Notes: generated from the sequence alone by a model not told the origin. A stretch of 64,000 bases of DNA from Candidatus Poribacteria bacterium (GCA_965242965.1 OZ251518.1:3328001-3392000); one strand, 5' to 3'; counted from the first letter of the stretch, positions 6,182-64,000 are shown. Translations and numbers: made by a program.

Positions 6182-7201
6182 ATGCAACATTCAACACAGA
6201 AAAAACCTGACATTTTAACCACAACCGTCGGTTCTTATCCGATTCCGGACTGGCTTTCGGTGATGCCGACTGAACAGGCACTCATCGATGCGACGCGCGT
6301 CGTCGTTGACATTCAACGCCAACACGGCATCGATATGCCCACGGACGGCGAACTTTACCGTTTTGATGTCAATCACCCCGATACTAACGGGATGATAGAC
6401 TATTTTATCCGTCCGTTGGGAGGCATCAGTGCAGAGGTAGGGCGGCAGGAGTGGCATGAATTTCGGCAGATGCAGACGATGGCGTTTCGCGCGAAACCCG
6501 CCGGGGTTGTTCACGCACCCCTCGGCGAAGGAACGCTCAACCTCGTCACCGACTGCCAACGGATGACGAGTGTCGCTGGCAAGGACATCAAGTTCACCGT
6601 GACGAGTCCCTATATGCTCGCGCGCACCTTGTTGGATAAGCATTACGGCGATTTTGAAGCGTTGCTTTCCGCTTTGGCAGAGGTATTGGCGGCGCAAGTC
6701 GGCGAACTTGACTGTGCCTGCCTCCAAGTTGACGAGGCGAATATACCGGGCAATCCACAAGACGGTCCTCTCGCCGCTGCTGCGATTAACATTGTTCTGG
6801 ATGCGTTTCCGGGAGAGAAGGCAGTCCATTTCTGCTTCGGTAACTACGGCGGACAGGTTATCCAGAAAGGGAATTGGCGCGCGCTGACAGATTTCTTGAA
6901 CCTGCTCCGGTGCGATCATCTCGTTTTAGAGTTGCAACATCGGCCAGAGGCAGACCTGGAGGCACTCAAAGCAGTTTCGTCGGACATTGTCCTGGGCATC
7001 GGCGTGATTGACGTAAAGAGCAACCCCGTTGAAACGCCGGACGAGGTGGCGGCAAGTATTGAGAAAGCCGAAAGAGTGCTTGGCTCCTCCCGGGTCGGCT
7101 GGGTGCATCCGGATTGTGGTTTTTGGATGCTCAAGCGTTCGGTAGTTGACAGGAAGATAGAGGCTCTGGTGCAGGGTAGGGATAAATACCTCGGCTATTA
7201 G
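6182..7201 (+). CDS. Cobalamin-independent methionine synthase, catalytic-domain-only (MetE-like)
   Basis: TTTVGSYP, TDGE, LQVDE, HFCFGN, HPDCG zinc ligands. Confidence 0.85.
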   Translation: MQHSTQKKPDILTTTVGSYPIPDWLSVMPTEQALIDATRVVVDIQRQHGIDMPTDGELYRFDVNHPDTNGMIDYFIRPLGGISAEVGRQEWHEFRQMQTMAFRAKPAGVVHAPLGEGTLNLVTDCQRMTSVAGKDIKFTVTSPYMLARTLLDKHYGDFEALLSALAEVLAAQVGELDCACLQVDEANIPGNPQDGPLAAAAINIVLDAFPGEKAVHFCFGNYGGQVIQKGNWRALTDFLNLLRCDHLVLELQHRPEADLEALKAVSSDIVLGIGVIDVKSNPVETPDEVAASIEKAERVLGSSRVGWVHPDCGFWMLKRSVVDRKIEALVQGRDKYLGY

Positions 7202-7208
7202 GTTAATC

Positions 7209-7364
7209 TAGGGGGTTTCATATTTCGATTAGTCTCGATGTTCCCGTAGCGCGAGGGCCCTCGCCCTACGATGAAGGGGGCTTTCTGCCGCCGCGGCCCC
7301 GGTAGGCGCGCCGCCCTATTGCATCGAGACCGGGAGGTCTCTCCTACCGGGGAAAAACACGCTC
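7209..7364. mobile_element. Degenerate TIR/REP MITE-like element
   Basis: Ends tagggggtttcata...aaacacgctc; 9-bp direct repeat AGGTTAATC at 7200-7208 and 7365-7373. Confidence 0.65.
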
Positions 7365-7468
7365 AGGTTAATCCGTATACCCGTGTCCCCGTAGGGCGAG
7401 GGCCTATCCCTCGCCGTGTCTAAATCGAAAATATATTTATCTCGAAAAGGCTGTAGAAAGGATACGAA

Positions 7469-7789
7469 ATGTTTGAAGTCCATTTACCGGCGTTGAAGAA
7501 ATATCAGCATATCGCCGGTATCACCGCGGGTGTGGGATTTGTGCTTGGAATGCTCATTCCCGCGTTCGCTATTTTCACGACGAGGTGGGCCTGTCCGTTT
7601 GGGGATGGGTTGCTTCGCATCGGCGGGTTTTTGTTGCTCACAGGGCTTGTAAGCGCAATTGTGTTCGGCAATCTTGTCGCCGTTTTCTTAATGGGACTCG
7701 CGAAGATGAAACAGAGGCGTGCGAACCGCACGCGCTCGCGTGTAACTGCACGCCGCGGGTCACGAAAGGGAAAAAACACAAATGTTTGA
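7469..7789 (+). CDS. Small membrane protein (2 TM, basic tail)
   Basis: RBS aagga; hydrophobic segments; overlaps the next gene. Confidence 0.6.
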   Translation: MFEVHLPALKKYQHIAGITAGVGFVLGMLIPAFAIFTTRWACPFGDGLLRIGGFLLLTGLVSAIVFGNLVAVFLMGLAKMKQRRANRTRSRVTARRGSRKGKNTNV

Positions 7790-8654: not shown

Positions 8655-8663
8655 CTAGTCTTC

Positions 8664-9400
8664 GTAGGGCGAGGGCCCCCGCGCTACGGTTGTCAAGGCC
8701 GTCTCCCTTTACCGTAGGGCGAGGGCCTGTCCCTCGCCGTGCCTCGATCGGAACGAGAAATAACCTGGGTCGGCGCGCGGTTTTCGCGCGGATCGAACGT
8801 TCGCGGGGGACAGGCCCCCGCGCTACGATGAAAAAACGTGCCGCTTACCGTAGGGCGAGGGCCTGTCCCTCGCCGTGTCTCGATCGAGAGGGAAACGGCC
8901 TTGGTCTGTGTTCGTTTTTCGCGCGGGTCGAGCGATCGCGGGGGACAGGCCCCCGCGCTACGGGCCCGGAAAGGGTTCTCCTCAAGGTCCTTTAGGACCT
9001 TAATGTCTATAGCACGCGCAGTCCGCCAAGTCCTCAAGGTTCTTTAGGACCTTAATGGTTTTCGGTGGCGTTGCGTGTGCTGTCTATTAAGGACCTAAAG
9101 GACCTTAGCGTTTTTTTTCGTCGACGGGTTACTATAGACATGCAGGACCTAAAGGACCTGAAGAGGTGCCGTTTACCCTAGGGCGAGGGCCTGTCCCTCG
9201 CCGTGCCTCGATCGGGAAACCGGCGTTGGTCTGCGTGCGGTTTTCGCGCGGGTCGAACGCTCGCGGGGGACAGGCCCCCGCGCTACGGGCCAGGTAAAGG
9301 GTTTTCCTCGCCAGACCCGTTCGGGAGCAGGTGCTCCCGAACTACAGTCTCCTGCTCCGCTCTTGCTAATCGTGATAATCGTGCAAATCCTGCTCCTCTA
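8664..9400. repeat. Mixed repeat cluster: GTAG REPs, aaggtcctttaggacctt palindromes and aatc(g/c)tg 9-mers
   Basis: Direct reading of repeated motifs. Confidence 0.85.
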
Positions 9401-9416
9401 AGGAATTATCTCGTGC

Positions 9417-11405
9417 CTACCGATATGCCTTAAATCCCGCTTCCACGCGCCGTTTGTGATAGAGATTCAGCATATCGCCTTCCACACGTGCAGTTGCGCG
9501 CCTACCATCAGTAAAGGTTAACAGAAATTCTGTGTCGGATGCCTGCGTTATCTCCTCAGTTTTCGGCAGCGGCACCGCCTTTTGTGCTGCCCATTCTTGG
9601 AGAGTCTTGGTGAGCGCAGCAGCATTCTTCGGCACAGCATCGGCATCCTTCAACGGAATGCTGAAAGCGGTAACGTTTTTCTGGACATAAGGAAACCAGC
9701 GGGCAGTCCTGAGGAACGGCACTAATGCCTGCAACGCTTCTGCCGTGCCAATTCGGCTGAGTGCCTCAGCGGAGAAGCCGCGCACATAGGCAGACTCGCT
9801 TTGCAAAGCGGCAGCTAATACGGGAATAGCCGCGGCGGCCGCCGGCCCAATGCGTGTCAACGCCTGCGCCGCGAAGAAACCTAAATCCAAGTCTTCCCGA
9901 TTTTCAAGCACGCCTATCAACGCCGGCACCGTTTTCTCGGTTGGCACCTGAATCATGCCTAACGCCGAGATTGCATGCCGCCGCACCTCGTCGGATGCAT
10001 CGGTTAACAACCGAATGAGCGTGTCAACTGCGCCTGCGGCATCCGGTCCCATTTCGCCAAGCGCATACGCGGCAGAGGCTCGCACGTTTTCACGTTCATC
10101 TACTAAGGCGGTTTTGAGCGCGGGAACAGCCGGTGCGCCGATGGCAGCGAGGCCATGTGCAGCATCACAGATATGGAGGATTGGCTCAGCTTCAAACGCT
10201 TCTTGTTCCGCAGCGAGTGCCTCGGCAAGGGGTGCGACAGCCGGTTCGCCTATCGCGCCGAGGGCATAGAGCGCGTTGCGTCGAACAGGTTCATAAGCAT
10301 CGGCAAGCGCGTCAATGAGTGCCGGGACTGCCGCCGCTGCATCTTCACGCAGAAAACCGAGTTCATTGGCGGCCTCCATCCGAGTCGCCGCGTCACTGCT
10401 TTTTAGCGAGGCAATTAGGGTGCTTTGTCGAGACTGGGAGGGCGCGTTTATTGGAGTTAATCGAGACCGGGAGGTCTCGCCTACTGGTGTTTGTCGAGAC
10501 TGGGAGGGCTCTCCTACAGGGAGGCGCGATGTGGAAGCGCGAGCCTGTCCCGTTTCATACAAATCTGTTTTCCCATACATCCAATTCCACATGTATGTCC
10601 ACAGAATCTCGGCATCATAGGGGATGTGATTGATTTCAGGCGGTGCCCAGGTATCCGTTTCGCTGTGCCACGAAGGCGCAGTCGGCTGCTCGGTGCGCAT
10701 AAAGACGAATTTCATGCCGTATCGGTTTAGCGAGGCGTAATTCTGGAGAAACGAATGCACCATATCAAAGTGCATAATCCAGACAGTGCCGAGTTCACCC
10801 GACATCGGCACAAGGTTCCGATTGACATAATTTTCCGGCAAGCGGCGTGTGCCGCTGTGCCCTTCGACATGCTGTTCGTGCCGTTGGTGCTGCCCATCGT
10901 GCATAAATCCGCGGAGATACTGCGTGCCCGGAATGATACACGTCGGCCCTTGTTCGGCAAGGCACGGCTGCGGGTAATAGAAAAGGATTGCCCAGCGCGG
11001 TGTGCGGTGACGGGGCCGTTTGCCGCCAGCGTGTCCATCTTTGTGGAGCGGCATCATCAACCTTTCTATGCCTGCCTCGTTCGGATTAGGTTCACTGCCC
11101 GCGAAATTGGGGTGGCAGTGCCGATGCGGGTGCATCACGTAACCGGCACCTAAAATGCTGGTGAGCGCGCCGCGCACCGCCGGTGACTCCAAAACGACTT
11201 GAAGTTCCGGCACCAATGGCAAAATGTTATTGAGGGGGTTGTGCGCCCGGTCCCCCCGGAAATCCAATGCGCCCGCGAAGAGCGCATCGGTTTTGTGATA
11301 GATAGTCTCGTGAAGCCCTGTCGGCACGTCAGCGGTAACGTCCACATAGCCGTTGACGATGAAGTGGCGAATCTGTTCATCGTTTAAGAGCTGCTGTTTG
11401 TCCAT
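9417..11405 (-). CDS. PhyH-like dioxygenase fused to HEAT-repeat domain
   Basis: FIVNGYV, LHKD, GPTCIIPGT, HFDMVH; C-terminal repeats AVPALIxAL.D....VR..A..ALG. Confidence 0.85.
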   Translation of the reverse strand: MDKQQLLNDEQIRHFIVNGYVDVTADVPTGLHETIYHKTDALFAGALDFRGDRAHNPLNNILPLVPELQVVLESPAVRGALTSILGAGYVMHPHRHCHPNFAGSEPNPNEAGIERLMMPLHKDGHAGGKRPRHRTPRWAILFYYPQPCLAEQGPTCIIPGTQYLRGFMHDGQHQRHEQHVEGHSGTRRLPENYVNRNLVPMSGELGTVWIMHFDMVHSFLQNYASLNRYGMKFVFMRTEQPTAPSWHSETDTWAPPEINHIPYDAEILWTYMWNWMYGKTDLYETGQARASTSRLPVGEPSQSRQTPVGETSRSRLTPINAPSQSRQSTLIASLKSSDAATRMEAANELGFLREDAAAAVPALIDALADAYEPVRRNALYALGAIGEPAVAPLAEALAAEQEAFEAEPILHICDAAHGLAAIGAPAVPALKTALVDERENVRASAAYALGEMGPDAAGAVDTLIRLLTDASDEVRRHAISALGMIQVPTEKTVPALIGVLENREDLDLGFFAAQALTRIGPAAAAAIPVLAAALQSESAYVRGFSAEALSRIGTAEALQALVPFLRTARWFPYVQKNVTAFSIPLKDADAVPKNAAALTKTLQEWAAQKAVPLPKTEEITQASDTEFLLTFTDGRRATARVEGDMLNLYHKRRVEAGFKAYR

Positions 11406-11469: not shown

Positions 11470-12054
11470 GAGAGTGTTTCATAAATCGCTCAACTTGGTA
11501 GGCTGCCCCCGGTCTCCATACATCCTTGTAGGAGAGACCTCCCGGTCTCGATTGCCCGTAGCGCGGGGGCCCTCGGATGCCAGACGCGCATCCGACCGGG
11601 TTTCCCCGCGTTGGCCATCGTCAAGCGGGGGGCGTTTTAGGTCTTTAGCACCTACATGTCTATAGAAACACGTGCAGGTCCCACGTCAAGGTCCTTTAGG
11701 TCCTTAATAAAAAAACACGCGCCGCAGCAAAACACATTAAGGACCTAAAGGACCTTAGAGCTCTTCGCGTCGCCGAGTGCTATAGACATTAAGGTCCTAC
11801 GGACCTAAGAGACGTTCTTTCCGTAGCGCGAACGATGGCGAGGGCCTGTCCCCCGCCCTACGATGAAAGGAAGGCGTTATTTTTATCGTAGCGCGGGGGC
11901 CCTCGCATGCCATACGCGCATCCGAGAGGGTTTCCCCCGCGATCGTTGGAGTGCGTGAACGATGGCGAGGGACAGGCCCTCGCACTACGATGAAGGGGGG
12001 CCTATTGCATCGAGACCGGGAGGTCTCTCCTACACGGATTTATGAAACACCCTC
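11470..12054. mobile_element. TIR/REP MITE-like element (585 bp)
   Basis: gagagtgtttcataaatc...gatttatgaaacaccctc; perfect 9-bp TSD ATTTGGGCT. Confidence 0.85.
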
Positions 12055-13627: not shown

Positions 13628-13885
13628 GAGGGTGTTTCATAAATCGCTCAACATCGCGGGGGACAGCCCCCGCGCTCCGATGAAAAAAACGATTTCCCTT
13701 CACGTAGGGCTTGGACCCTCGCCTGCCACACGCGCATCCGAGCGGGTTTCCCTCGCCATGCGTTTTGCTGTCAGACCGCATCCCCCCTGTAGGTCAGGAG
13801 CGCCTGCTCCTGACCCGTTCGGGAGCGGGCGCTCCCGAACTACAGAGATAGGCCCGATGCCTCTCGGTATTTATGAAACACCCTC
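13628..13885. mobile_element. TIR/REP MITE-like element between hslV and hslU
   Basis: gagggtgtttcataaat...atttatgaaacaccctc; flanks ggtaaat / agtaaaa share gtaaa. Confidence 0.8.
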
Positions 13886-14536: not shown

Positions 14537-14768
14537 GTAGGGCGAGGGCCTGTCCCTCGCCATGTCAAACGCGCACGGAGGGCCTGTCCCTATAACTTCT
14601 GCTTGTCAAGACGAATCGAGACCGGGAGGTCTCTCCTACCGGGCGAGAGCCTGTCCCTATAACTCCTGCTGGTTCGTAGGGCGAGGGCCTGTCCCTCGCC
14701 ATCGTTCACGCACCAGGCTGACCGGTAGGCTCATTTGGCCCGTAGGGCGAGGGCCTGTCCCTCGCCAT
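14537..14768. repeat. REP-like cluster upstream of hslV
   Basis: Three gtagggcgagggcctgtccctcgcc copies and one C-family copy. Confidence 0.85.
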
Positions 14769-16793: not shown

Positions 16794-17741
16794 GAGGGTG
16801 TTTCATAAATAGTTCAACGTCGCGGTGACAGGCCCCCGCGCTACGATGAAAAAACGCCGCCCCTTCACGGAGGGCTTGGGCCCTCGCATGCCACACGCGC
16901 AGGCGAGGTTTCCCGCGCCAGCACTCGCGTCATCCAACGCTCGCGGGGGACAGGCCCCCGCGCTACGAAAAAAAACGCCCTTTTCACCGTAGGGCGAGGG
17001 CCTGTCCCTCGCCATCGTTCTCGCGCCAGGCCCTGTAGGGCAAGATCGCCTGAAGCTCTGGCAGACTTGCCAAGCGATCCCGAACCGTTTGTAATCAGGC
17101 GATCAAAACTGCAGAGGGGAACACACATCGTGACGATGGAGCTCGCGGGGGACAGGCCCACGCGCTACGAAAAAAACGCCACCCCCGCACCGTAGGGCGA
17201 GGGCCTGTCCCTCGCCATCGCTCGCGTCAGCCAACGCTCGCGGGGGACAGGCCCACGCGCTACGATGAAAAAAACGCCGCCCCTTCACGTAGGGCGAGGG
17301 ACAGGCCCTCGCCATCGTTCTCGCGCCAGACCCTGTAGTTCGGGATCGCCGGATCCCGAACCGTTTGTAATCAGGCGAGCACAAACTACAACGGGTGAAC
17401 ATACATCGTGACGATGGAAATCGCGGGGGACAGGCCCACGCGCTACGAAAAAAAACGCCACCCCCTTCACGTAGGGCGAGGGCCTGTCCCTCGCCATCGT
17501 TCACGCGCCAGCCCCTGTAGGGCAGGATCGCCGGATCCTGACCCGTTCGGGAGCGGGCGCTCCCGAACTACAAAGTGGGCCCAATGCCCTCCGGTAGAAG
17601 AGACATCACTTGCATCGAGACCGGGACGGCGCGCCGACAGGAAAAAATCGAGACCGGGAGGGCTCGCCTACCAAGAGGGCTCGGTATTCGCCCGCTCTCA
17701 AAGGGGCGATAAATACCGAAACGAAGTTATGAAACACCCCT
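16794..17741. mobile_element. Large TIR/REP mosaic element (~950 bp) with internal tandem modules
   Basis: Left gagggtgtttcataaat, right ttatgaaacacccct; internal modules repeated about three times; no clear TSD. Confidence 0.7.
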
Positions 17742-19845: not shown

Positions 19846-20376
19846 GAGGGTGTTTCATAACTCCGTTTCGGTATTTATCCCGCTTGGGGGCGGGCGAATA
19901 CCGCGTCCTCTTGGTAGGAGAGCCCTCCCGGTCTTGATGCAACGCTATAAACCTTATTAAGGTCCTACGGACCTTGATAGGTGCTGCACGTTTTTCTATA
20001 GACATTCAGGTCCTACGGACCTAAAAGAGCGGTTTGATAGACCGCAGCATGGCGAGGGACAGGCCCTCGCCCTACGATGAAGGGGGCCGTTCTGCTGCCA
20101 AGAAACCGTCCGGTTACCGTAGCGCGGGGGCCTGTCCCCCGCGAGTGAAAAAACCGTCCGGTTACCGTAGCGCGGGGGCCTGTCCCCCGCGAGCGTCCCG
20201 GTAGGAGAGACCTCCCGGCCTCGATTCCTCCGCGAACGGCCGATGGCGAACCGTAGGAGAGTCAGACTCCTCACCTCTGTAGGTCAGGATCGTCTGAAGC
20301 TCTGGCACATTTGCCAAGCGATTCTGACCCGTTCGGGAGCGGGTGCTCCCGAACTACAGAGTTATGAAACACCCTC
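19846..20376. mobile_element. TIR/REP MITE-like element (531 bp)
   Basis: gagggtgtttcataact...agttatgaaacaccctc; 8-bp TSD AGTTAACT/AGCTAACT. Confidence 0.85.
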
Positions 20377-23396: not shown

Positions 23397-23399
23397 TTT

Positions 23400-23617: not shown

Positions 23618-23913
23618 GAGGGTGTTTCATAAATCGCTCAACGTCGCGGGGACAGGCCCCGCGCTACAGTGGAAAAAACGCCTCACCTTCACGTAGGGCG
23701 AGGGCCCTCGGATGCCACACGCGCATCCGAGCGGGTTTCCCTCGCCATGCGTTTGGCTGGCAGAGCGCATCACTCCTGTAGGTCAAGATCGCCTGATCTT
23801 GACCCGTTCGGGAGCGGGCGCTCCCGAACTACAGAGGTGGGCCCGATGCCTGCCGGTATTCGCCCGCCCTCCAAGGCGAGATAACTACCGAAACGGAGTT
23901 ATGAAACACCCTC
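23618..23913. mobile_element. TIR/REP MITE-like element (296 bp)
   Basis: Both TIRs intact; perfect 9-bp TSD AGTCAAAAT. Confidence 0.9.
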
Positions 23914-26598: not shown

Positions 26599-26854
26599 GA
26601 GGGGATTTCATAAATCGTCCAACGTCGCGGTGACAGGTCTCGCGCTACGGTAAAAAAACGCAGCTCCTTCACGTAGGGCGTGGGCCCTCGCATGCCACAC
26701 GCGCATGCGAGCGGGTTTCCCTCGCCATCGCTCGCGCGCCAGGCCTGTAGGTCAAGATCGCCTAATCTTGACCCGTTCGGGATCGGGCGATCCCGAACTA
26801 CAGAGGTGGGCCCGATGCGCTTCCCCTCAAGGGATAAATTTATGAAACCCCCTC
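26599..26854. mobile_element. TIR/REP MITE-like element (256 bp)
   Basis: gaggggatttcataaat...atttatgaaaccccctc; 10-bp TSD AACTGAAACT/AACTAAAACT. Confidence 0.8.
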
Positions 26855-31044: not shown

Positions 31045-31515
31045 TTGCACCAGAAATCCCTATCAAACGCCTTGCGAAATACGAAAATCATTGTTCCCGC
31101 GCTGTTTCTCCTCGCCATCCTCACTATCTTGGTGAACAATCGGCGTGAAGGAAACAACGTCAATGCCGTTCCGAAACCTTTCGCTGAACTGAGCACGGAC
31201 TTATGCGATTTCGGAGATATCCTACCCGACACAACGCATAAACAGCAGGTAACCCTCTCCGTAAATGTGCCGATGGATACCGACAAGATCCGCCTGATGC
31301 CGACACACCACCCCGCGTTGACATGGAAACGCGCGCCGACATCAGAGGGCAACTTCCTCATCACTATTCAGTTGGGACTGCTGAAAGAACTAGGCATTTT
31401 TTCAGCGTTACTTACGGTGGCTTTCCCGAATGAACGCACCCTGACACTCCCTGTCACCACTCGTGTGGTGGTGCCCGTGACAGGGCAATTCAAGCACGCT
31501 CCGAAAAACCGGTAG
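31045..31515 (+). pseudogene. Possible internally deleted DUF1573/Ig-like membrane-anchored gene
   Basis: TM followed by CDFGDI motif, but short; starts inside a repeat-like sequence. Confidence 0.35.
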
Positions 31516-31785
31516 GAGAGCCCTCCCGGTCTCGATGCCTCCGCGAACGTCCGATGGCGCGCCGTAGGAGAGTCAGACCGCCTCACCTCTGTAGGTCAGG
31601 ATCGCCTGATCCTGACCCGTTCGGGAGCGGGCGCTCCCGAACTACAGAGTTATGAAACACCGTCCTGTTCCCGTAGCGCGGGGGCCTGTCCCCCGCGAAT
31701 GTGAAGAAACCGTCCTGTTCCCGTAGCGCGGGGGCCTGTCCCCCGCGATCGTGGCATGGCGAGGGACAGGCCCTCGCCCTACGGT
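31512..31785. repeat. REP cluster with a partial TIR-element end
   Basis: C, D and A/B REPs; ttatgaaacaccg near 31650. Confidence 0.75.
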
Positions 31786-34871: not shown

Positions 34872-34959
34872 TGTTGTCCTCCGTGTTTTGATTGGGTTAT
34901 GAGAATTTTAACGTAAGTCAAAATAAATTGCAAGGGATTAAAAAACGGGGCATGAAACG

Positions 34960-35535
34960 ATCGCGGGGGACAGGCCCCCGCGCTACGGTATCCGGAACGC
35001 TCTCTCTTACCGTAGGGCGAGGGCCTGTCCCTCGCCATGCTGCGGTCTATCAAACGATCGCGGGGGACAGGCCCCCGCGCTACGGTAGATGAGGCGGCCT
35101 CGCGTTTGATCCGTTCGGGAGCAGGCGCTCCCGAACTACAGTCTCTGGGGCACGCGAACGATCGCGGGGGACAGGCCCCCGCGCTACGGTAGATGAGGCG
35201 GCCTCGCGTTTGATCCGTTCGGGATCAGGCGCTCCCGAACTACGGTCACTAGGGCACGCCGACGATCGCGGGGGACAGGCCCCCGCGCTACGGTAACCGG
35301 AACGGCTCGTTTTACCGTAGGGCGAGGGCCTGTCCCTCGCCATGCTGCGATCGCGGAGGAAACCCGCGCGGATGCGCGGATGCATCCGAGGCCCCCGCGC
35401 GACGGGGCATGAAACGATCGCGGGGGACAGGCCCCCGCGCTACGGTAACCGGAACGGTTTCTCTTACCGAGCGGCAGCAATCGAGACCGGGAGGGCTCTC
35501 CTACCCGAAAGCATCGAGTTATGAAACACCCCGAA
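34960..35535. repeat. REP cluster with internal duplications and a lone TIR-like end
   Basis: Duplicated gtagatgaggcggcctcgcgtttgatccgttcggga; ttatgaaacaccc near 35520. Confidence 0.8.
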
Positions 35536-36397: not shown

Positions 36398-36860
36398 AAA
36401 CGGGTTATTTTGCAAACCACCGCGCCGCCATCACGTAGGGCGAGGGCCCGCGCAGGTTTCCACACGCGCAGGCGAGCGGGGTTCCCTCGCCGTGCGTTTT
36501 GGTGTCAGACCGCATCACCCCTGTAGGTCAGGATCGCCTGATCCTGACCCGTTCGGGATCTGGCGATCCCGAACTACAGAGGTGGGCCCAATGCCTGCGG
36601 GTATTCGCCCGCCCACCAAGGCGGGATAAATACCGAAACGGCGTTATGAAACACCCTCATTAAAACGGGTTATTTTGCAAACCACCGCCCCCTCACGTAG
36701 GGCGAGGGCCTGTCCCTCGCTATGCTGCAAGCACAGAGAGATCACAGGGGACAGGCCCCCGCGCTACGGTACTCCCTGTCCCTCGCCATCCTGCGAGCAC
36801 AGAGAGATCACGGGGGACAGGCCCCCGCGCTACGGTACTGCCTGTCCCTCGCCATCCTGC
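36398..36860. repeat. REP modules with one TIR end and a 25-bp direct repeat
   Basis: aaacgggttattttgcaaaccaccg at about 36398 and 36663. Confidence 0.75.
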
Positions 36861-40288: not shown

Positions 40289-40667
40289 GAGGGTGTTTCA
40301 TATTTCGCTCAACGTCGCGGGGGACAGGCCCCCGCGCTACGGTAACAGGAGGGGGTCTTAGTCGAAGAACATCCCCTTTCCCCGTAGGGCGAGGGCCTGT
40401 CCCTCGCCATGCTGCGGACTACCAAACGATGCGGGGGACAGGCCCCCGCGCTACGGTAACAGGAGGGGGTCTTAGTCGAAAAATGCCCCCCCCTTCACGT
40501 AGGGCGAGGGCCTGTCCCTCGCCATGCTGCGGATTACCAAACGATCGCGGGGGACAGGCCCCCGCGCTACGGTACTGTGACATTTTCTTGCCAGGTCTTT
40601 CCTCCGGTGTCGCATCGAGACCCGAGGTCTCTCCTACAGGGAAGCCATCGAGATATGAAACACCCTC
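40289..40667. mobile_element. TIR/REP MITE-like element (379 bp)
   Basis: gagggtgtttcatat...atatgaaacaccctc; flanks ACATAGTT/ACATAACT. Confidence 0.8.
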
Positions 40668-44048: not shown

Positions 44049-44210
44049 GAGGGTGTTTTATATCTCGATGGCTTCCCGGTAGGAGGGACATCCTTGTCCC
44101 GATACGGTGGGGCATCGAGACCGGGAGGTCTCTCCTACCGACACCTCCCTTTTTTGACCCTATCGCGGGGGCCTGTCACCGCGACGTTGAGCGATTTATG
44201 AAACACCCTC
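44049..44210. mobile_element. TIR/REP MITE-like element (162 bp)
   Basis: Both TIRs; 8-bp TSD TTTTAACT/TTTTAGCT. Confidence 0.85.
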
Positions 44211-49599: not shown

Positions 49600-49696
49600 C
49601 ATCCTTAGCCACGGCACATAGGGTGAGGGCGAGGGCCTGTCCCTCGCCGTGCCGCGGGTTAAGCACACATCCGAATCCATAGGAGAAAAATCCACA

Positions 49697-55600: not shown

Positions 55601-56257
55601 CACCAGAGCCGCCTCTACGCCATTCCTGACGAAAAACGGCGCGTCACCGAAGGCGACCGGGTAAAGGCAGGACAACCGCTCACGGACGGTTACCTCAACC
55701 CGCACGATATCCTCAGCATCGGGCGCGTCTTCATTGAAGATGTGCCAATTGATGGTGATGAAGCACTCTGGACATACCTCGTTGAGGAAATCCAAAAGGT
55801 TTACGGTGCACGCGCCATCAACGACAAGCACCTCGAAGCCATCGTCCGCCAGATGACGAGGAAGGTGCGGGTGATAGCACCCGGCGATACGCAGTTTCCC
55901 CATAACAGTGAGGTGCCGCGACAGAAATTCAATGAAGTCAACGCGAAGGTTATTGCTGAAGACGGTAAACCCGCTACCGGCGAACCGATTCTGCAAGGCA
56001 TTAGCCGCGCATCGCTCAGTACCGACAGCTTCATCTCTGCCGCCTCGTTCCAGCAGACGACGAAGGTGCTGACAGATGCCGCTGTCAAAGGGCAGAAAGA
56101 CAAACTCTTCGGATTGAAGGAGAACGTCATCCTCGGTCGCCTCATCCCTGCAGGAAGTGGACTTTCGGATTTCCAGCATTTGGAAATCACGGAAGTTGAC
56201 GCTGACGAAGAGATGGAAGCACCGGAATCCGCCGAGTCATCGTCTGCGGTGCCATAA
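49697..56257 (+). CDS. rpoC: RNA polymerase beta' subunit (~2186 aa) with giant trigger-loop insertion
   Basis: Zn finger CNCGKYK...CDRCG, GRFRQNLLGKRVDYSGRSV, NADFDGD, QLTMRTFH, GLKENVILG; RBS aggag. Confidence 0.97.
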   Translation: MATPFDSISLKIASPEEIKELAKRTCCKRRSSTVGHGEPFICPEMHTCNCGEVKKAETINYRSFRPELEGLFCEAIFGPSKDWECNCGKYKRIKHKGVICDRCGVEVTRQHVRRERMGYIQLASPVSHIWFFKGVPSRIGAFCELSARQIENILYFDAFMVTEADEELQEQGIMKPNQLISEAEFDRYKREYRGRFKAGAGGQILAKRLASLDLEAECAKIVKELEETRSHQKKVKLTKQLRLMEDFISSGQRPEWMILDVLPVIPPDLRPLVTLDGGRFATSDLNDLYRRLIHRNNRLAKLIKMRSPEVILRNEKRMLQEAVDAFFDNGRHGRRVTGPGNRELKSLSHVLKGKVGRFRQNLLGKRVDYSGRSVIVVGPELGIHQCGIPKQMAVELFKPFIIERLQAHGYSGTIKRAKAYVEHIDSNSPVWEVLEEVIEEHPVLLNRPPTLHRLGIQAFMPVLVEGKSIRIPPLVCKAFNADFDGDQMAVHVPLTAEAQAEAKLLMLSSHNILKPSHGGPIAVPELDMVLGPSYLTKTLPEHDADAQLLHKVYTTQNGDATLLDEIRRKPWYHRRYAHMEEVIAAHGAGQLKLHDSVQLFFPENGAPREPILTTVGRVIFNEVLPAELKWVDAHSGQRLPFFNGEAGGRQLSAIVETCFNTPELGTRGTVALLEKLQKLAFEYATLSGISPGIIDYITPSQREGLLAKTEAAIAKLRAAAAADADTEELENQQIHLWYQALREMENIMFSRLPELETQLVERGEDVKGFSPVHIMADSGARARKNPFMQISAVIGLKAKQSGEILLPPITTSYRDGLDVIDYFNSTYGSRKGLVDTAMKTAASGYLTRKLVDVAQDVRVTEADCGTVNGIKKFATEGGELAFKINGRTATEDILHPNTGEVLVKADELISAEAAALIEKSEIKSVNVRSVLTCATEDGVCAKCYGHDLTTNMLVSVGEAVGIIAAQSIGEPGTQLTMRTFHTGGAVEEVSDARQRQIRAKASGTVRFRDFHPGITVHQEGTLWISTGPGNAPLGNPPSASADAEDETQRKTGNRANLDAPTYKVTRVIHADCKLRKDELLNEKQYSENAQRYKGFETVPWQHRVTAVHDDACPVKEGDRLSAAQWREAISAYGFPRFATEKREITHVRLSTVNVQPDDVLTEEEIEQREAEIRNRFDGEWCYRIPKTGEIFKSAQDFLPGLGIPVEPLEDIEDTEMLGDTSAETAEDLASAETSLAKDTSFERVYRITERTDRDFPYAVGDIVAAEEIEPWLTPFEAAPNPVYVIDANAPWHAGETLTRYQYEEVCRDYRPFESEKAAEVLHHVTAVHHPKCPLKPGQDLTEADKNAMLARWSGFDVERLRHRVTHIYHPGFPHTPGYLMSDAEAKRLGSKHPGFETETSPVFAAQLVIWEDEEAESSDKAKPIKPYCVTGIHHRDCPLEAGDLFTPKEVTAQRRKFPGFDVERFYVIPRENIYEVTETKRAFTAKALAGSKKSWRITEVLHPACQLEVGKIVSDATYKKTRKTYPSTNQGQLITQTAFETWGGSLAATQVSPEPEQFLHRVTEAKPAFTAEASPEAETSRESDRTWRVTEVFNTACPYEVGQEISDVEYRRGQEEYGDTRGDFLTQMELEHRNALTTQPVLQLSETEFKVLRKTDPTLKDRVITSRYRVVDTYHPEFPFKVGEVLTDKDYKQCQKDFRGFDVEHFYEVTADEREFVESSPQEAETQLISDLTVEGPHYRHDVEPSPVATFEKPRLKKFWRVNAVSNPECPLEVGQNLSEGEYLAARETYKVITEKQNPDSRFLEGDILVLSEREYNALMKGHRQEAPHTVTAVHHPNCPLQVGAKLSKAEYEGLSAHYPGFDTDEPALRMHIEIETADGHRVPHLITEGYSFSIKEGDPVKVEDTLAELHEKTANMDIVAGIPRVTDLFEARRPKREDAAEIAEIEGRIEAAGTKAGVPTYRIVDEEHQSRLYAIPDEKRRVTEGDRVKAGQPLTDGYLNPHDILSIGRVFIEDVPIDGDEALWTYLVEEIQKVYGARAINDKHLEAIVRQMTRKVRVIAPGDTQFPHNSEVPRQKFNEVNAKVIAEDGKPATGEPILQGISRASLSTDSFISAASFQQTTKVLTDAAVKGQKDKLFGLKENVILGRLIPAGSGLSDFQHLEITEVDADEEMEAPESAESSSAVP

Positions 56258-56294
56258 GGCGAGGAAAACTTATCCCTCGCCACGCTCCCAGGTC

Positions 56295-56467
56295 GTAGGG
56301 CGAGGGCCTGTCCCTCGCCATGCCGCACAACTACCTGAATCGCGTAGGGCGAGGGCCTGTCCCTCGCCATGCCGCACAACTACCTGAATCGCGTAGGGCG
56401 AGGGCCTGTCCCTCGCCATGCCGCACAACTACCTGAATCGCGTAGGGCGAGGGCCTGTCCCTCGCCA
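56295..56467 (+). repeat. Perfect tandem of a 49-bp unit (4 REPs, 3 identical spacers)
   Basis: gtagggcgagggcctgtccctcgccatgccgcacaactacctgaatcgc at 56295, 56344 and 56393; fourth REP at 56442. Confidence 0.9.
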
Positions 56468-56482
56468 TGCTCCGGAGGATCC

Positions 56483-57937
56483 ATGCGTAAACTCCCCGAA
56501 CTCAACAGTCTCCACTACGGCGATTGCCTTGAAGTCATGCACCCATGGCCCGATGAAACCATCGACCTCGGCTACTTCGATCCCCCTTTCAACAGCAACG
56601 CCAAATATCATCAACTCTACGATACCGGTGACGACAACCGCGGCACGCGCGACGCACAACTCCAAGCCTTTGATGATTCCTGGCGATGGAACGCCACCGC
56701 CGCCGAGCGTGTCGCAAATCTCCTCGATGCACCCGCACATCCCGCGCATCGCGTCATCGAAGCTTTCGCAAAATGGCCCGGCGAAGGCGGCATGCTCGCC
56801 TATCTCACCTACATGGCAGAACGCATTGCTGTCCTGCATCGATTGCTTAAACCTACAGGCAGCGTCTATCTCCACTGCGATGCAACCGCCGCGCATCCAC
56901 TCAAACTCCTCATGGATTGCATCTTCGGACCGGAAAACTTTCGGAACGAGATTGTGTGGTGCTACAAAGGCCCAAGCAATACGAAACGTTGGTTTCCCCG
57001 CAAACACGATACGATCTTCTTCTACGGCAAAACGTCGGAGGCGAAGTTTTATCCCGATGGCGCGCGGGTTGCCTACAGCCGAATCACCGGAACGGGACAG
57101 ACTTCGCTTACGAGAGGCAGTCGGACGCGTGAAGAAGTTGAAGCATTAGAGACGGCTTACGCCGAACGCGGCAAACTCGTGGAGGATTATTGGACAGATA
57201 TTCCGGCAGGTGGGCACATGCCGAGGCATGAACGCTTGGGTTATCCGACACAAAAGCCGCTTGCGCTATTGGAACGCATCATCAAGGCATCCACCGTTGA
57301 AGGCGACATCGTGCTGGATCCGTTTTGTGGGTGTGGCACAACAGTTGCCGCCGCCGATAACCTGAACAGGAAATGGCTCGGCATTGATATCTCCCCGCAC
57401 GCGCTAGAGGTGATTTTGACGAACCGCTTTCCTGGGCGCGCCATTCCCACGAGCGGTATCCCTGCAGACTTTGCGGCCGCCGCGCAACTCGCGAAGGCGA
57501 ATTCCCGCCACTTTGAAGTCTGGGCACTGAATTGTGCATCACAAGGGTTCGCGCCTAACGATACCCAAACCGGCGATGGCGGCATCGATGGCAGAGGCCA
57601 CACACTCCTGCAACCCGATGACTGCGACACCAAACTGGTGCTGGCGCAGGTAAAAGGCGGCAGATTCCATCTGAGCCAACTCCGTGATTTCTTATGGGTG
57701 CTGGAACGGGAGAAAGCGGCGATGGGCGTGTTCATCACCTTGAACCCTGTCACATCACGGAACGCACAGGCGGAACTACTGCGACTTGGCACTGTCACCG
57801 TCGGCACGGAAACATATCCGCGCGTGCAAACCTGGTCCCTCAAGGCGCATTTTGAGGGACAGCGACTGCGGCTGCCAGATATGAACAACCCCTATACCGG
57901 CAAACCTTTACAGCCATCGCTGCAATTGGTTTTGTAA
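56483..57937 (+). CDS. Beta-class N4/N6 DNA methyltransferase fused to Mrr-like nuclease domain (copy 1)
   Basis: DPPF, YPTQKP, DPFCGCGTT, DGGIDG...AQVKGG; RBS ggagg. Confidence 0.9.
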   Translation: MRKLPELNSLHYGDCLEVMHPWPDETIDLGYFDPPFNSNAKYHQLYDTGDDNRGTRDAQLQAFDDSWRWNATAAERVANLLDAPAHPAHRVIEAFAKWPGEGGMLAYLTYMAERIAVLHRLLKPTGSVYLHCDATAAHPLKLLMDCIFGPENFRNEIVWCYKGPSNTKRWFPRKHDTIFFYGKTSEAKFYPDGARVAYSRITGTGQTSLTRGSRTREEVEALETAYAERGKLVEDYWTDIPAGGHMPRHERLGYPTQKPLALLERIIKASTVEGDIVLDPFCGCGTTVAAADNLNRKWLGIDISPHALEVILTNRFPGRAIPTSGIPADFAAAAQLAKANSRHFEVWALNCASQGFAPNDTQTGDGGIDGRGHTLLQPDDCDTKLVLAQVKGGRFHLSQLRDFLWVLEREKAAMGVFITLNPVTSRNAQAELLRLGTVTVGTETYPRVQTWSLKAHFEGQRLRLPDMNNPYTGKPLQPSLQLVL

Positions 57938-57959: not shown

Positions 57960-59423
57960 ATGAAAACGCTTCCCGAACTCAACAGTCTCCACTACGGCGA
58001 TTGCCTTGATGTCATGCACCCGTGGCCCGATGAAACCATCGACCTCGGCTACTTCGATCCCCCTTTCAACAGCAACGCCAAATATCATCAACTTTACGAT
58101 ACAGGTGACGATAACCGCGGCACGCGCGACGCACAACTCCAAGCCTTTGATGACTCTTGGCGATGGAACGCCACCGCCGCCGAGCGCGTCGCAAATCTCC
58201 TCGATGCACCCGCACATCCCGCGCATCGAGTCATCGAAGCTTTCGCAAAATGGCCCGGCGAAGGCGGCATGCTTGCCTATCTCACCTACATGGCAGAACG
58301 CATTGCCGTCCTGCATCGATTGCTTAAACCCACAGGCAGTGTCTATCTCCACTGCGATGCAACCGCGGCACATCCACTCAAGCTCCTCATGGATTGCATC
58401 TTCGGACCGGAAAACTTTCGCCGCGAGATTGTGTGGCAGATGAAATCGCGCTCCGGTTTCAAAAGCCGAGCCGCGAATTGGATTCGGGACCACGATACTA
58501 TCCTCTATTACGTCAAATCGGAGCAGGCGACGTTCAACAAGCAGTTTGAACCCTATTCCGATGAATATGTGGCACGAAGTTTCACGCAGACAGATGCGGA
58601 TGGACGGCGGTATCGTCAACGCGGGAATAAACGCTACTACGAAGATGAAGGCGGTATTCCTTACGGCGATGTCTGGGACGACATCCACTCCTTTCAGACA
58701 GCGACGCGGAGTCAAGAGTATCTGGGGTATCCTACCCAGAAACCGTTGAAACTTCTGGAACGCATCATTCAGGCATCCTCTAATGAAGGCGATATTGTGC
58801 TGGACCCGTTTTGTGGGTGTGGGACAACAGTTGCCGCTGCCGATAACCTGAACCGAAAGTGGCTCGGCATTGATATTTCGCCGCACGCGTTGGAAGTCAT
58901 CAAGTTAAACCGCTTTCAGGGGAGAGCCATACCGACGAGCGGGATTCCTGCCGATTTCGCAGCAGCGGCGCAGTTAGCCAAGGAAAATTCTCGCCATTTT
59001 GAAGTCTGGGCACTGAATTGTGCCTCGCCAGGGTTCGCGCCTAACGATACCCAAACAGGCGATGGCGGCATCGATGGCAGAGGCCACACACTCCTGCAAC
59101 CCGATGACTGCGACACCAAACTGGTGCTGGCGCAGGTAAAAGGCGGCAGATTCCATCTGAGCCAACTCCGCGATTTCTTATGGGTGCTGGAACGGGAGAA
59201 GGCAGCGATGGGCGTGTTCATCACGCTGAACCCTGTCACATCACGGAACGCGCAGACTGAAATCTTGAGACTTGGCACCGTCACCGTCGGCACGGAGACG
59301 TATCCGCGCGTGCAAACCTGGTCCCTCCAAGAACATTTTGAGGGACAGCGGCTGCGATTGCCGGATATGAACAACCCCTATACCGGCAAACCGCTACAAC
59401 CCGCGCTGCAATTGATGTTGTAG
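57960..59423 (+). CDS. Beta-class N4/N6 DNA methyltransferase fused to Mrr-like nuclease domain (copy 2)
   Basis: Same motifs; flanks near-identical to copy 1. Confidence 0.9.
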   Translation: MKTLPELNSLHYGDCLDVMHPWPDETIDLGYFDPPFNSNAKYHQLYDTGDDNRGTRDAQLQAFDDSWRWNATAAERVANLLDAPAHPAHRVIEAFAKWPGEGGMLAYLTYMAERIAVLHRLLKPTGSVYLHCDATAAHPLKLLMDCIFGPENFRREIVWQMKSRSGFKSRAANWIRDHDTILYYVKSEQATFNKQFEPYSDEYVARSFTQTDADGRRYRQRGNKRYYEDEGGIPYGDVWDDIHSFQTATRSQEYLGYPTQKPLKLLERIIQASSNEGDIVLDPFCGCGTTVAAADNLNRKWLGIDISPHALEVIKLNRFQGRAIPTSGIPADFAAAAQLAKENSRHFEVWALNCASPGFAPNDTQTGDGGIDGRGHTLLQPDDCDTKLVLAQVKGGRFHLSQLRDFLWVLEREKAAMGVFITLNPVTSRNAQTEILRLGTVTVGTETYPRVQTWSLQEHFEGQRLRLPDMNNPYTGKPLQPALQLML

Positions 59424-59475: not shown

Positions 59476-60165
59476 GTAGGAGAGACCTCCCGGTCTCGAT
59501 GCCCTCCAATAGGCCCCTCTTGGCGAGCAGGGCGAGGGCCTGGTAGGAGAGACCTCCCGGTCTCGATGCACATCAGTAGACCTCTATTGGAACGTAGGGC
59601 GAGGGCCTGTCCCTCGCCATGCTAAACACTTGGAGCAAAATTCGCAGGAGATGAGCAGGATTTACAAGATTATCACGATTAGGAGCAGGATTTGCACGAT
59701 TATCACGATTTCGCACGATTATAGGGCTTGGTGCATCAAATACCCCGTGGCCTGCCAAAAGGGTGTCCGGCACACCAAAAACCTACTAATCTTGGTAACT
59801 CCTGGAAGAGGGACAATCAGGAAAACCTGATTGTCTTGACAGGCGTGACCCTGAAAATCCTGCTCATATCCTGTGAAATCCTGGAAATCCTGAAAATCCT
59901 GCTCCGGATTTACAAGAGTATCACGATTTCGCACGATTATAGGGCTTGGTGCATCAAATACCCCGTGGCCTGCCAAAAGGGTGTCCGGCACACCAGAAAC
60001 CTAATCTTGGTAAATCCTGGAAATCCTGAAAATCCTGCTCCGGATTGACACGATTTCGCACGATTATAGGGCCCGGCGAGACAAACGCGGGGGACAGGCC
60101 CCCGCGCTACGAAACCTGAGTCCCCTCTTGGAACGTAGCGCGAGGGCCTGTCCCTCGCGAATTAT
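59476..60165. repeat. Repeat cluster: REPs, aatcctg 9-mers and a ~77-bp direct repeat
   Basis: tatcacgatttcgcacgattatagggcttggtgcatcaaataccccgtggcc... at about 59701 and 59919. Confidence 0.85.
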
Positions 60166-61568: not shown

Positions 61569-61586
61569 AGTGTCTCCTTTTTATAT

Positions 61587-61885
61587 GAGGGTGTTTCATA
61601 ACTCGTTGTTGTCACCGGTAGGAGAGCCCTCCTGGTCTCGATGCAATAGGGGGCCCTCGGATGCCACACGCGCATCCGAGCGGGTTCCCCTTGCCATCGC
61701 TCGCGCACTCCAACGCTCGCGGGGGACAGGCCCCCGCGCTACGAAAAAAAACGCCACACCCACACCGTAGGGCGAGGGCCCTCGGATGCCACACGCGCAT
61801 CCGAGCGGGTTCCCCTTGCCATCGCTCGCGCACTCCAACGCTCGCGGGGGACAGGCCCCCGCGCTACGAAAAAAAACGCTCCCTC
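61587..61885. mobile_element. One-ended TIR/REP element immediately upstream of fumC
   Basis: gagggtgtttcataact left end; duplicated internal module; no matching right TIR. Confidence 0.55.
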
Positions 61886-61912
61886 ACCGTTGAACTTTCT
61901 CAATGGCGTTCA

Positions 61913-63499
61913 CTAAAAATTTAACGGCAACGCGCGCTGCAGCGGTTTCCCCGTATACGGATTAATCATATCCGGCAGCCGCGGCAGCCGTTCATGAAAC
62001 CAACGCTCAACCGAGTAAAACTGAACGCGCGGGAAGACGTGGTTCCCTATCTGCACGTTACCGAGTTTCGCCACCTCATTCTGCGCCGCCGATGAGGTAA
62101 CTTCCTCTAAAGTGATATAGACACCCATCACGGCGTTTTCACGCTGAACGACATGCAAGAAATCGCGCAACTGGCTGAGCGAGAACTTCCCACTCTTCAC
62201 CTGACCGAGGACGATTTTGGTAAAGTCGCCATCGGGCGTTTCCAGCGTATTCCCGATGCCATCAATACCGCCATCTGCACCGCCGCGCTCGTTCGGCGCA
62301 AGGCCCGGGATGAGGTTCACAGCCCATATCTCAAAGTGCCGCCGGTTCTCACCGGCGAGCCGCATCGCACTCGCCAAATCTGCGGGTACCCCATAGGTTG
62401 GGATATGGCGGCCCGGAAACCGCTGCGTTTTGATGACATCAAGTGCAGAGGGATTAATATCAATGCCAATCCACTTGCGATTGAGCGTATCGGCGGCGAC
62501 GACGGTGGTGCCGCAGCCACAAAACGGATCCAACACAATATCTCCTTCGTCCGAGGAAGAGCGAATGATGCGTTCAAGGAGTTCGATCGGTTTCTGCGTG
62601 TTGTATCCGAGACTCGCTTTCCCTCGCACGGGCGCGATGTCTGTCCAGATATCCTGCAACGGCACCCCTTTCGCCTCGCTCAGATATTTCTTGTAATAAA
62701 AGGGCCCGCCGTCTCGCAGTTGCACCAGCATATTAGACTTGTGCATCCGCTGCATATTCGCTTCAGTGAACCGCCAAGCCCGCGTGATGCCTTGAAACGT
62801 ATAGGGTTTGTTCCCGCCAGCCTCGTTGGTGCAAGGCAGCAACCGATACAGCCCTTTTGCATCCTGATGCTTGTAATGCGATGCAATATAGGCAGCATCA
62901 TACGGCGTATATTGGATGCGATATTTCGCCTGTGGGGACATCACGTAATAGAAAATGATGTCATGATTCCTACCCATGTGGGAGGTAGCGAGGTTGTGCG
63001 TGTCTAACCGCCGCTTCCAGACGATTTCGTTTCGGAAGTTGGCCGCCCCAAAGAGCGTATCCATAACGATTTTGAGATAGTGACCCGCGGTGTCATCGCA
63101 GTGCAGATAAACACTGCCGGTCGGCTTAAGGACGCGCTTTATCTCAATCAAGCGAATCGCCATGTAACTGACATAAGCCATCATCCCGCAGTCGCCGAGA
63201 ATCTGGTGCAACCCGACGATGGCTTTGTGAATTGGCGAAGCAACCATGCCGGTGAGCTCATCAACGCGTGCCTGCGCATCGGGCGTCCAATGCCACGTAT
63301 CGTCAAATGCCTTCAGCGACGCGGCGCGCGTGCCTTTGTTCGCCATCTCTGCCTCCAGCGCGTAAAGTTGGTTATATTGCTGCTTGGAATTGAACGGCGG
63401 ATCTCCGTAGACGATGTCCACCCAATCATCCGGCCATTGCCGCAAGATGTGGAGATTGTCGCCGTAGTGGAGGCTATTCAACGCGGGAATTGTTAACAT
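61913..63499 (-). CDS. Beta-class DNA methyltransferase-nuclease fusion (third, more divergent paralog)
   Basis: DPPF, YNTQKP, DPFCGCGTT, DGGIDG...GQVKSG, shared tail PDMINPYTGKPLQ. Confidence 0.9.
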   Translation of the reverse strand: MLTIPALNSLHYGDNLHILRQWPDDWVDIVYGDPPFNSKQQYNQLYALEAEMANKGTRAASLKAFDDTWHWTPDAQARVDELTGMVASPIHKAIVGLHQILGDCGMMAYVSYMAIRLIEIKRVLKPTGSVYLHCDDTAGHYLKIVMDTLFGAANFRNEIVWKRRLDTHNLATSHMGRNHDIIFYYVMSPQAKYRIQYTPYDAAYIASHYKHQDAKGLYRLLPCTNEAGGNKPYTFQGITRAWRFTEANMQRMHKSNMLVQLRDGGPFYYKKYLSEAKGVPLQDIWTDIAPVRGKASLGYNTQKPIELLERIIRSSSDEGDIVLDPFCGCGTTVVAADTLNRKWIGIDINPSALDVIKTQRFPGRHIPTYGVPADLASAMRLAGENRRHFEIWAVNLIPGLAPNERGGADGGIDGIGNTLETPDGDFTKIVLGQVKSGKFSLSQLRDFLHVVQRENAVMGVYITLEEVTSSAAQNEVAKLGNVQIGNHVFPRVQFYSVERWFHERLPRLPDMINPYTGKPLQRALPLNF

Positions 63500-63648
63500 A
63501 AAGCGTGTCCTTTTCCGTTCGATCTTCAGTGGATTTCCATTTCTGATTAACCTTATGATACCACATTAGACAACATTTTTCAAACAAAGCGATTGTAAAG
63601 CAGAGACATTTGGTTATCCAAAAAAAGGAGAGGAACGTTATCTATTTT

Positions 63649-63967
63649 GAGGGTGTCTCATAAATCGCTCAACATCGCGGTGATAGGCCCGCCGGTAGGA
63701 GAGACCTCCTGGTCTCGATTCCTCTCCTACCGGAAGGCATCGGGCCCACCTCTGTAGTTCGGGAGCGTCCGCTCCCCAACAGATCAAGATCAGGCGATCT
63801 TGATCTACAGGGGTGATGAAGTCTGACAGCCAAACGGACAGCGAGGGACAGGCCCTCGCCCTACGTGAAGGTGAGGCATTTTTTATCGTAGCGCGGAGGC
63901 CTCGGATGCCACACGCGCATCCTAGCGGGTTTCCCCCGCGACGTTGGGCGATTTATGAAACACCCTC
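63649..63967. mobile_element. TIR/REP MITE-like element (319 bp)
   Basis: gagggtgtctcataaatcgc...gcgatttatgaaacaccctc; 5-bp TSD ATTTT. Confidence 0.8.
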
Positions 63968-64000
63968 ATTTTATAGAAGAAATTTTACCCTATTTAGGCG

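Follow-up and report, generated by a model that had tools for sequence, protein, structure and literature searches.

REP-filled inverted-repeat elements in a Poribacteria window

The window analyzed here, meaning the whole stretch of 64 kb of DNA, belongs to a sponge-symbiont-type (Poribacteria) chromosome, and its PurA protein is 94% identical to a protein named Candidatus Poribacteria by NCBI. Close relatives with PurA identities of 94 to 99% exist. It carries ordinary chromosomal genes (rpoB, rpoC, fusA, purA, rplM, hslUV, and several DNA methylases) together with two kinds of repeats that are the subject of this report: palindromic hairpins of the repetitive extragenic palindrome (REP) type, present in nearly every intergenic gap, and elements bounded by terminal inverted repeats (TIRs), whose interiors are built from such hairpins. 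Self-comparison marked 12.4 kb of the window as repeated, and we estimate the repeat content at ~10 kb once the paralogous methylase genes are set aside. An Rfam scan of the whole window returned two tRNAs only, with no family covering the hairpins or the TIR-bounded elements, which are discussed below as MITEs (miniature inverted-repeat transposable elements).

The 14-nt end GAGGGTGTTTCATA has 24 matches in the window (≤2 mismatches), compared to a mean of 0.29 and a maximum of 2 in 100 dinucleotide-preserving shuffles; the original prediction, made from this DNA sequence, had named TIR pairing and flanking repeats no commoner than chance genome-wide among the outcomes that would count against it. 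A profile search with nhmmer, using a profile built from the same window ends that it recovers, gave 23 ends at E≤0.0064. The next best hit had E=0.94, indicating that the TIR-less arrays of the window hide no further or degenerate ends, and a match at 19261 (E=6.2) was rejected as a genuine end, being probably due to chance. Ten inverted pairs in convergent orientation, spanning 156 to 948 bp, were located where the original prediction had placed ten elements of 156 to ~950 bp (Table 1), and the lone ends that it had put near 31650, 35520, 36650, and 61587 are real, at 31664, 35533, 36658, and 61587. The ends are conserved for ~18 to 19 nt and then diverge into about three subterminal classes (AAATCG, AACTC, and AT(T/C)TCG), the number foreseen.

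Direct repeats of 8 to 10 bp with ≤2 mismatches flank 7/10 elements. The repeats are perfect (9/9) at 7209, 11470, and 23618, and the match is 9/10 at 26599, 7/8 at 19846 and 44049, and 6/8 at 40289. Among 210 mismatched left/right pairings used as a control, none reached 9 or 10 bp, and the ten that reached 8 bp (≤1 mismatch) did so because the sites share a target consensus. A TIR lengthened by 8 nt in place of a duplication is excluded, since the perfect flanks are direct and nonpalindromic. The flanking direct repeats are therefore real target duplications. Their variable length had been predicted and is borne out by the 9-bp (three elements), 8-bp, and 10-bp cases, with a supported range of 8 to 10 bp rather than 5 to 10 bp: the 5-bp ATTTT "duplication" of the element at 63649 is a weak, AT-rich 5/5 match and was not accepted. 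A T precedes the end (position -1) in 21/24 window ends, in line with the earlier remark that the duplications begin with A and end with T; an A stands at -4 in 18/24.

An insertion sequence with the same ends in other Poribacteria

As the original prediction had noted, no mobilizing gene lies in the window: none of 37 long open reading frames (ORFs) matched a transposase in Pfam, and tblastn with the family transposase described below (P0007) gave no match. The genome_contigs collection (596 Gb) was scanned with a 15-mer of the end, for which we calculate a chance expectation of about a thousand matches. At least 84 loci were found, 80 of which were listed, and the counts given below for other Poribacteria are those among the matches listed, their loci being designated by L numbers. 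Twenty-one loci come from 11 Poribacteria metagenome-assembled genomes (MAGs); the other 59 are single matches in unrelated taxa, and tblastn with the family transposase found nothing in them. The Poribacteria loci have 41 to 49% GC and none of the head motifs of the window's R1 to R3 hairpins.

In these other Poribacteria MAGs a 17-nt inverted repeat, GAGGGTGTTTCATAAAT, bounds an insertion sequence (IS) of 1122 bp; the TIR around a transposase ORF, which the original prediction had suggested looking for in the source genome, is thus seen in other MAGs. The copy at L013 (2502-3623) measures 1122 bp, has both ends, and encodes one DDE ORF of 285 amino acids (aa) that matches Pfam PF13612 (DDE_Tnp_1_3) above the cut-off, with the first 53 transposase residues in another frame (tblastn). 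At 9/9 distinct matching Poribacteria places among those listed, tblastn puts transposase sequence immediately interior to the end and in the orientation to be expected, which agrees with the DDE enzyme proposed earlier as the likely mobilizer. The first 21 nt of the commonest window end are the same as the end in L054. Deletion derivatives of 972 bp (L071), 683 bp (L043), 626 bp (L040), and 150 bp (L004) are also present. Two of them, at L040 1889-2514 and L071 263-1234, have near-identical right flanks and apparently occupy the same site in two MAGs, with different internal deletions.

The flanks in these relatives show a target bias of which that of the window ends is a weaker version. Among the 24 ends of the matches listed, the preceding bases read A at -8 (22/24), A/G/T, T (19), T (23), A at -4 (24), A (20), T/C, and T at -1 (24). 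Perfect 8-bp duplications flank the elements of L071 (AATTAATT) and L004 (AGTTATTT), both at ARTTAAYT-like sites. At L059 (2501-2536), the ends of two elements meet with a single 8-bp ATTTAATT between them, which suggests repeated insertion into a regenerated target site.

The transposase family has 772 homologs at E≤1e-5, mostly of 332 aa and, where named, called "hypothetical protein" in NCBI; many lie on contigs of 1.1 to 1.3 kb. Its best NCBIfam match is IS982 (NF033520) at 50 to 56 bits, below the cut-off of 130, and a profile of 18 members aligns with the annotated IS982 transposase of an Aquicella plasmid at an hhalign probability of 93%, values that point to only a distant relationship to IS982. 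D121, D213, E269, and K286 are invariant in 18/18 aligned sequences, and K277 is not conserved. In the profile alignment the IS982 protein has its LDST and GDKGY motifs at D121 and D213; these two residues and E269, the putative catalytic glutamate, are the candidate catalytic residues, and K286 follows E269 by 17 residues. The families that had been put forward as mobilizers, IS1182 (19 to 26 bits against a cut-off of 270), IS5 (16 to 21 bits against 110 to 140), and IS256 (no match at E≤0.01), were rejected in favor of this IS982-like enzyme, and the NCBIfam models of IS4 and IS1634 score far below the IS982 model. A plasmid collection gave 4 weak transposase matches (23 to 31% identity), none with these ends. 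Poribacteria thus harbor a widespread IS family with a 17-nt TIR, a length of ~1.12 kb, and one ~332-aa DDE transposase distantly related to IS982. Since the same inverted repeat bounds the window elements, which have paired TIRs, target duplications, and 156 to 948 bp without a transposase gene, these would be MITEs of that family.

Hairpin families and element interiors

Five hairpin families, R1 to R5, are palindromes of 25 to 29 nt, all five with an unpaired 5' GTAG. As DNA they fold at -5.3 to -11.7 kcal/mol, compared to shuffle means of -2.2 to -5.7, and R4 and R5 pair as one long hairpin of -26 kcal/mol. By simple count the window has 125 GTAG hairpins, or 1.95 per kb, against 0 to 1.0 per kb in eleven other Poribacteria loci; 119 units belong to R1 to R5. 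In several arrays the spacers are regular and R1 and R2 point in opposite directions by turns, in the manner of bacterial interspersed mosaic elements (BIMEs). The element interiors are GTAG-tagged REP hairpins of the GTAG REP superfamily of Di Nocera et al. (2013, PMC3733652), in agreement with the REP modules reported at first.

The distribution of the hairpins is uneven. When R6 is included, 41 of 127 units lie within the ten pairs, 18 in the lone-end arrays, and 68 elsewhere, meaning that most REPs are independent of the TIR-bounded vehicle and spread mainly by some route other than MITE carriage; the claim that the vehicle spreads REP arrays was overstated as a general route. In contrast, R4 (7/7), R5 (11/12), and two further modules, N (9/11) and B (4/4), are TIR-associated in 31/34 units, compared to 41/108 for R1, R2, R3, and R6 (Fisher p=2.5e-8).

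Nor are all interiors different, as had been thought. One backbone is common to the elements at 13628, 23618, 26599, and 63649 (reverse complement) and to the truncated one at 36398-36658. These five copies are 74 to 89% identical over 220 to 260 aligned positions and agree in the order and orientation of their modules and in spacer sequence. What separates them is module indels: four have N in the R1 loop and 63649 has it in the R2 loop, two contain B, and one contains an extra R3. Other module orders are found at 11470, 19846, 40289, 44049, and 7209. The module order common to five copies suggests a founder MITE with REP cargo, and this shared architecture, together with the modules confined to TIRs, suggests that some REPs traveled as cargo. 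The 150-bp MITE of L004, from another Poribacteria genome, encloses a perfect R3-type doublet.

The predicted remodeling of arrays in place is seen as tandem duplications of REP units within one element (17141-17573), in lone-end arrays (35053-35295; 61651-61879, 125 bp x 1.8), and in TIR-less arrays (3508-3891; 56294-56470). Two of these, 56294-56470 and 61651-61879, are 100% identical and look like very recent local amplifications; the former, between rpoC and a methylase gene, consists of 49 bp x 3.6 with R1 in direct orientation.

Some individual hairpins deserve mention. The N hairpin (~30 nt, 11 units, at 13703-13757, 5880-5940, 63880-63940, and others) is nested in an R1 or R2 loop in the same relative orientation and represents either an insertion that targets loops or a REP variant whose loop is long. 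Three R3-type units with a period of 33 nt lie in frame (10428-10517) within a HEAT-repeat ORF (9417-11405, minus strand, 662 aa), which stays open through them and reads ...PVGEPSQSRQTPVGETSRSRLTPINAPSQSRQ... there. Low-GC Poribacteria genomes have R3-type GTAG hairpins (GTAGGAGGGACCTCCCGGTCGCG-like) as well (L004 2365-2514; L079 3940-3970 and 4116-4140), so R3 seems old in the phylum. The truncated backbone element (36398-36700) is flanked by a direct repeat of at least ~27 bp (AAACGGGTTATTTTGCAAACCACCGC...) that runs into an R1; it is far longer than the normal duplication and is unexplained.

Table 1. TIR-bounded elements, lone ends, and REP arrays of the window
Feature	Coordinates	Organization	Flanking repeat
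MITE, 156 bp	7209..7364	Degenerate ends: left with 2 mismatches, right missed by the end profile	Perfect 9 bp, AGGTTAATC
MITE, 585 bp	11470..12054	R3, R2 with nested N, R6 module, R1, N, R1, R3	Perfect 9 bp, ATTTGGGCT
MITE, 258 bp	13628..13885	Common backbone (R2, R1 with nested N, R4/R5 doublet)	No clear duplication (5/8)
MITE, 948 bp	16794..17741	Backbone ends; right end with 2 mismatches	No duplication
Tandem REP duplication inside the 948-bp MITE	17141-17573	Periods 95 and 182	
MITE, 531 bp	19846..20376	B, R3, R6-type, R1, R2 x2, R3, R5	8 bp, AGTTAACT/AGCTAACT
MITE, 296 bp	23618..23913	Backbone plus module B; both ends perfect	Perfect 9 bp, AGTCAAAAT
MITE, 256 bp	26599..26854	Backbone type	10 bp, 1 mismatch, AACTGAAACT/AACTAAAACT
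MITE, 379 bp	40289..40667	~2.5 repeats of R2/R1 unit, plus R3	8-bp flanks, 6/8
MITE, 162 bp	44049..44210	R3 pair, R2	8 bp, TTTTAACT/TTTTAGCT
MITE, 319 bp	63649..63967	Reversed backbone; N in R2 loop, not R1; extra R3	5-base flank repeat
Lone right end, 1 mismatch	31500..31664	R3, R4, R5; directly adjoins an R2 array	No AT-rich flank
REP array ending in lone right end, 2 mismatches	34945..35533	104-bp tandem unit (35053-35295)	
Truncated backbone element	36398..36658	Without ~85 nt at left	
Lone left end, then REP array	61587..61890	125-bp unit x1.8 at 100% identity	
TIR-less BIME-like array	3508..3891	99-bp unit x3.9, two REP types alternating in orientation	
Other TIR-less arrays	2355-2730, 5802-6122, 8714-9345, 14537-14766, 27653-28402, 56294-56470, 59476-59618		

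The genes around the repeats show some features of their own. The two tRNA genes (Rfam, 23321-23474) are found a short distance upstream of the MITE at 23618. Both rpoB (44965-49599, 1544 aa) and rpoC (49649-56257, 2202 aa) are unusually long, and the 49-nt gap between them is occupied by a single R1 hairpin (49624-49648). A Type ISP-like methylase/specificity protein of 1021 aa (31806-34871), in which no nuclease or helicase domain was detected, and three paralogous N6/N4 DNA methylase genes (56369-57937, 57960-59423, and 61913-63499) form a dense restriction-modification neighborhood. A separate repeat family, unrelated to the REPs and the TIR, consists of short 7- to 8-nt units (AATCTTGG / AATCCTG / CACGATT) at 2590-2650, 9355-9400, 28150-28270, and 59640-60070, with ~200 bp duplicated at 59700-60070.

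Origin of the elements and comparison with known systems

With a probability of about 0.7, we regard the ten elements as MITEs of the Poribacteria IS982-like family whose REP-filled interiors partly traveled as cargo. A transposase encoded elsewhere would bind the ~17 to 19 conserved terminal bases and insert the element at AT-rich, ARTTAAYT-like sites by a staggered cut, giving a duplication of 8 to 10 bp. In this GC-richer lineage the interior would no longer be IS-derived, consisting instead of REP hairpins of the same families as the BIME-like arrays. A founder MITE may have taken up a REP/BIME unit and the R4/R5 doublet and spread with both as cargo, and later differences between copies would be local, arising as single hairpins were gained or lost, REP units duplicated in tandem, and REPs recombined with one another; such recombination would also explain the lone ends and the elements lacking a duplication. 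REPs would multiply without the MITE too, presumably via a RAYT-type enzyme (REP-associated tyrosine transposase); no RAYT gene was found among the 37 long window ORFs scanned against Pfam. We infer both mobilization in trans within this genome and REP capture by the founder element. Of the two-tier system proposed originally, the DDE-mobilized TIR elements and the remodeling in place stand, while the dependence of REPs on the vehicle and the individuality of every interior do not. The elements are a variation on known mobile DNA, not a new kind.

Several observations weigh against this interpretation. The family transposase has no tblastn match in the 64-kb window, and among the loci listed no element combined the two ends with an intact 332-aa ORF. 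The elements at 13628 and 16794 have no duplication and that at 63649 has 5 bp only; all three perfect window duplications are 9 bp, compared to 8 bp in relatives, which is unexplained. A comparison between the window and the ORFs from 18 Poribacteria loci turned up no orthologous empty site; only L059 and L079 have a homologous gene, and neither is syntenic at an insertion site. More than half of the hairpin units (68/127) lie outside TIR-associated arrays, and the low identity of the backbone copies means that the activity may be old.

That last point leads to the question of whether the elements are fossils, immobile in this lineage with no transposase left, their variety resulting from REP-driven recombination and slippage. 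The lack of a transposase in 64 kb, copies only 74 to 89% identical, imperfect or missing duplications in 7/10 elements, and four lone ends are what such a history would leave. Three elements, however, retain perfect 9-bp duplications, one of them (23618) with two perfect ends, and the transposase family abounds in Poribacteria (772 homologs), so that we consider the elements rather unlikely to be fossils. It is also conceivable that short MITEs spread first as empty vehicles and that REPs entered each copy separately, with nothing carried as cargo. REPs do fill intergenic DNA regardless of TIRs, whole-module indels distinguish the copies, and the N hairpin of 63649 is in the R2 loop, compared to the R1 loop in four other copies. 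Later colonization of this kind nevertheless fits poorly with five copies that share module order, orientation, and spacers along their aligned positions, with the near confinement of R4, R5, N, and B to TIR-associated arrays (31/34), and with the R3-type doublet in the 150-bp MITE of L004, and it seems distinctly improbable.

A third possibility is that one HUH tyrosine transposase of the RAYT/TIRYT kind owns the inverted ends and handles ends and REPs alike. Di Nocera et al. (2013, PMC3733652) describe genes of RAYT-like type that have long TIRs on either side, as well as TIR families of moderate abundance. The window elements, however, are flanked by direct 8- to 10-bp duplications, while IS200/IS605-type enzymes, as portrayed in the relevant part of PMC2817692, make no larger ones. 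Because of these duplications, and because the ends bound a DDE gene in relatives, action of an HUH enzyme on the ends is extremely unlikely.

A more far-reaching reading, which we think unlikely, is that some of the GTAG hairpins are now dispersed by a DDE-type MITE as their vehicle. Neither the R4/R5 doublet nor the N hairpin nested in loops may have a RAYT of its own, and both may now spread only between IS982-like ends; two ends that come to flank a resident REP/BIME array would mobilize the composite, producing new MITE architectures. Were this true, two unrelated transposition systems would act on one element.

The analysis identifies an abundant, uncurated IS family of Poribacteria together with its MITEs; the proteins are called "hypothetical" in NCBI. 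Poribacteria contigs end ≤20 nt from the end motif in 6/18 distinct places among the matches listed (short-read contigs L008, L009, L028, L031, L076, and L080 are broken at the TIR), which helps explain the break-up of short-read Poribacteria assemblies; the closest PurA relative is on a 3-kb contig. The physical combination of cut-and-paste MITEs with REP hairpins offers a case in which possible REP hitchhiking on a DDE element can be studied, in a window whose REP load amounts to ~10 kb of repeats in 64 kb and 1.95 GTAG units per kb.

In full-text searches, which do not cover subscription journals, we found no paper that deals with REP-filled MITEs or with either MITEs or REPs of Poribacteria, nor one linking IS982, MITE, and target site duplication. 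The Poribacteria IS resembles the IS982 family in being ~1 kb long with a single DDE gene of Pfam PF13612. According to the portion of Fayad et al. (2020, PMC7335449) used here, IS982 members measure 845 to 1282 bp with one ORF and duplications of 2 to 10 bp, a range into which the Poribacteria family fits (1122 bp, one ORF, 8 to 10 bp). The same text describes an "atypical DDE" with no conserved K/R at +6/7 after the glutamate and a K/R ~17 residues after it, and the Poribacteria transposase likewise lacks an invariant K/R 6 to 7 residues after the glutamate and has an invariant K at +17. The Poribacteria IS differs in having ends that begin with GAGGG and depart from the 5'-AC(N)6T(N)5TT signature of that family, and its protein of ~332 aa exceeds in length all those tabulated there (208 to 326 aa). 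The score of 50 to 56 bits against a cut-off of 130 and the strong ARTTAAYT target preference also set it apart.

Modular interiors and internal repeats have precedents: pneumococcal BOX elements are modular, and a Porphyromonas gingivalis MITE with an internal minisatellite has reportedly been found. Like IS-derived MITEs, among which Correia and RUP are named in the part of PMC2817692 used here, the window elements have IS-matching TIRs and target duplications, are noncoding, intergenic, and numerous, and contain a variable repeat. They differ in that their interiors are not a remnant of the parent IS, with which only ~17 to 21 terminal nt are shared, but are built from REP families that are also free in the genome. 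With GTAG REPs, BIMEs, and REP doublets forming hairpins (REPINs), as presented in the corresponding passages of PMC3733652 and Nunvar et al. (2010, PMC2817692), they share GTAG-tagged palindromes, high copy number, inverted doublets, and alternating arrays. In contrast to those systems, hairpin density in the window is unusually high, no RAYT gene is seen in it, and R4, R5, and N occur almost only inside TIR-bounded elements. A parallel in enclosure is the GTAG-15 family of Anabaena variabilis, whose REP dimers sit inside long palindromes (PMC3733652); in both cases a conserved pair of inverted repeats regularly surrounds the dimers. In the description of GTAG-15 drawn on here, those palindromes come with no transposase partner or duplication and are not found without REPs, whereas the window ends are those of an identified IS family and give rise to duplications.

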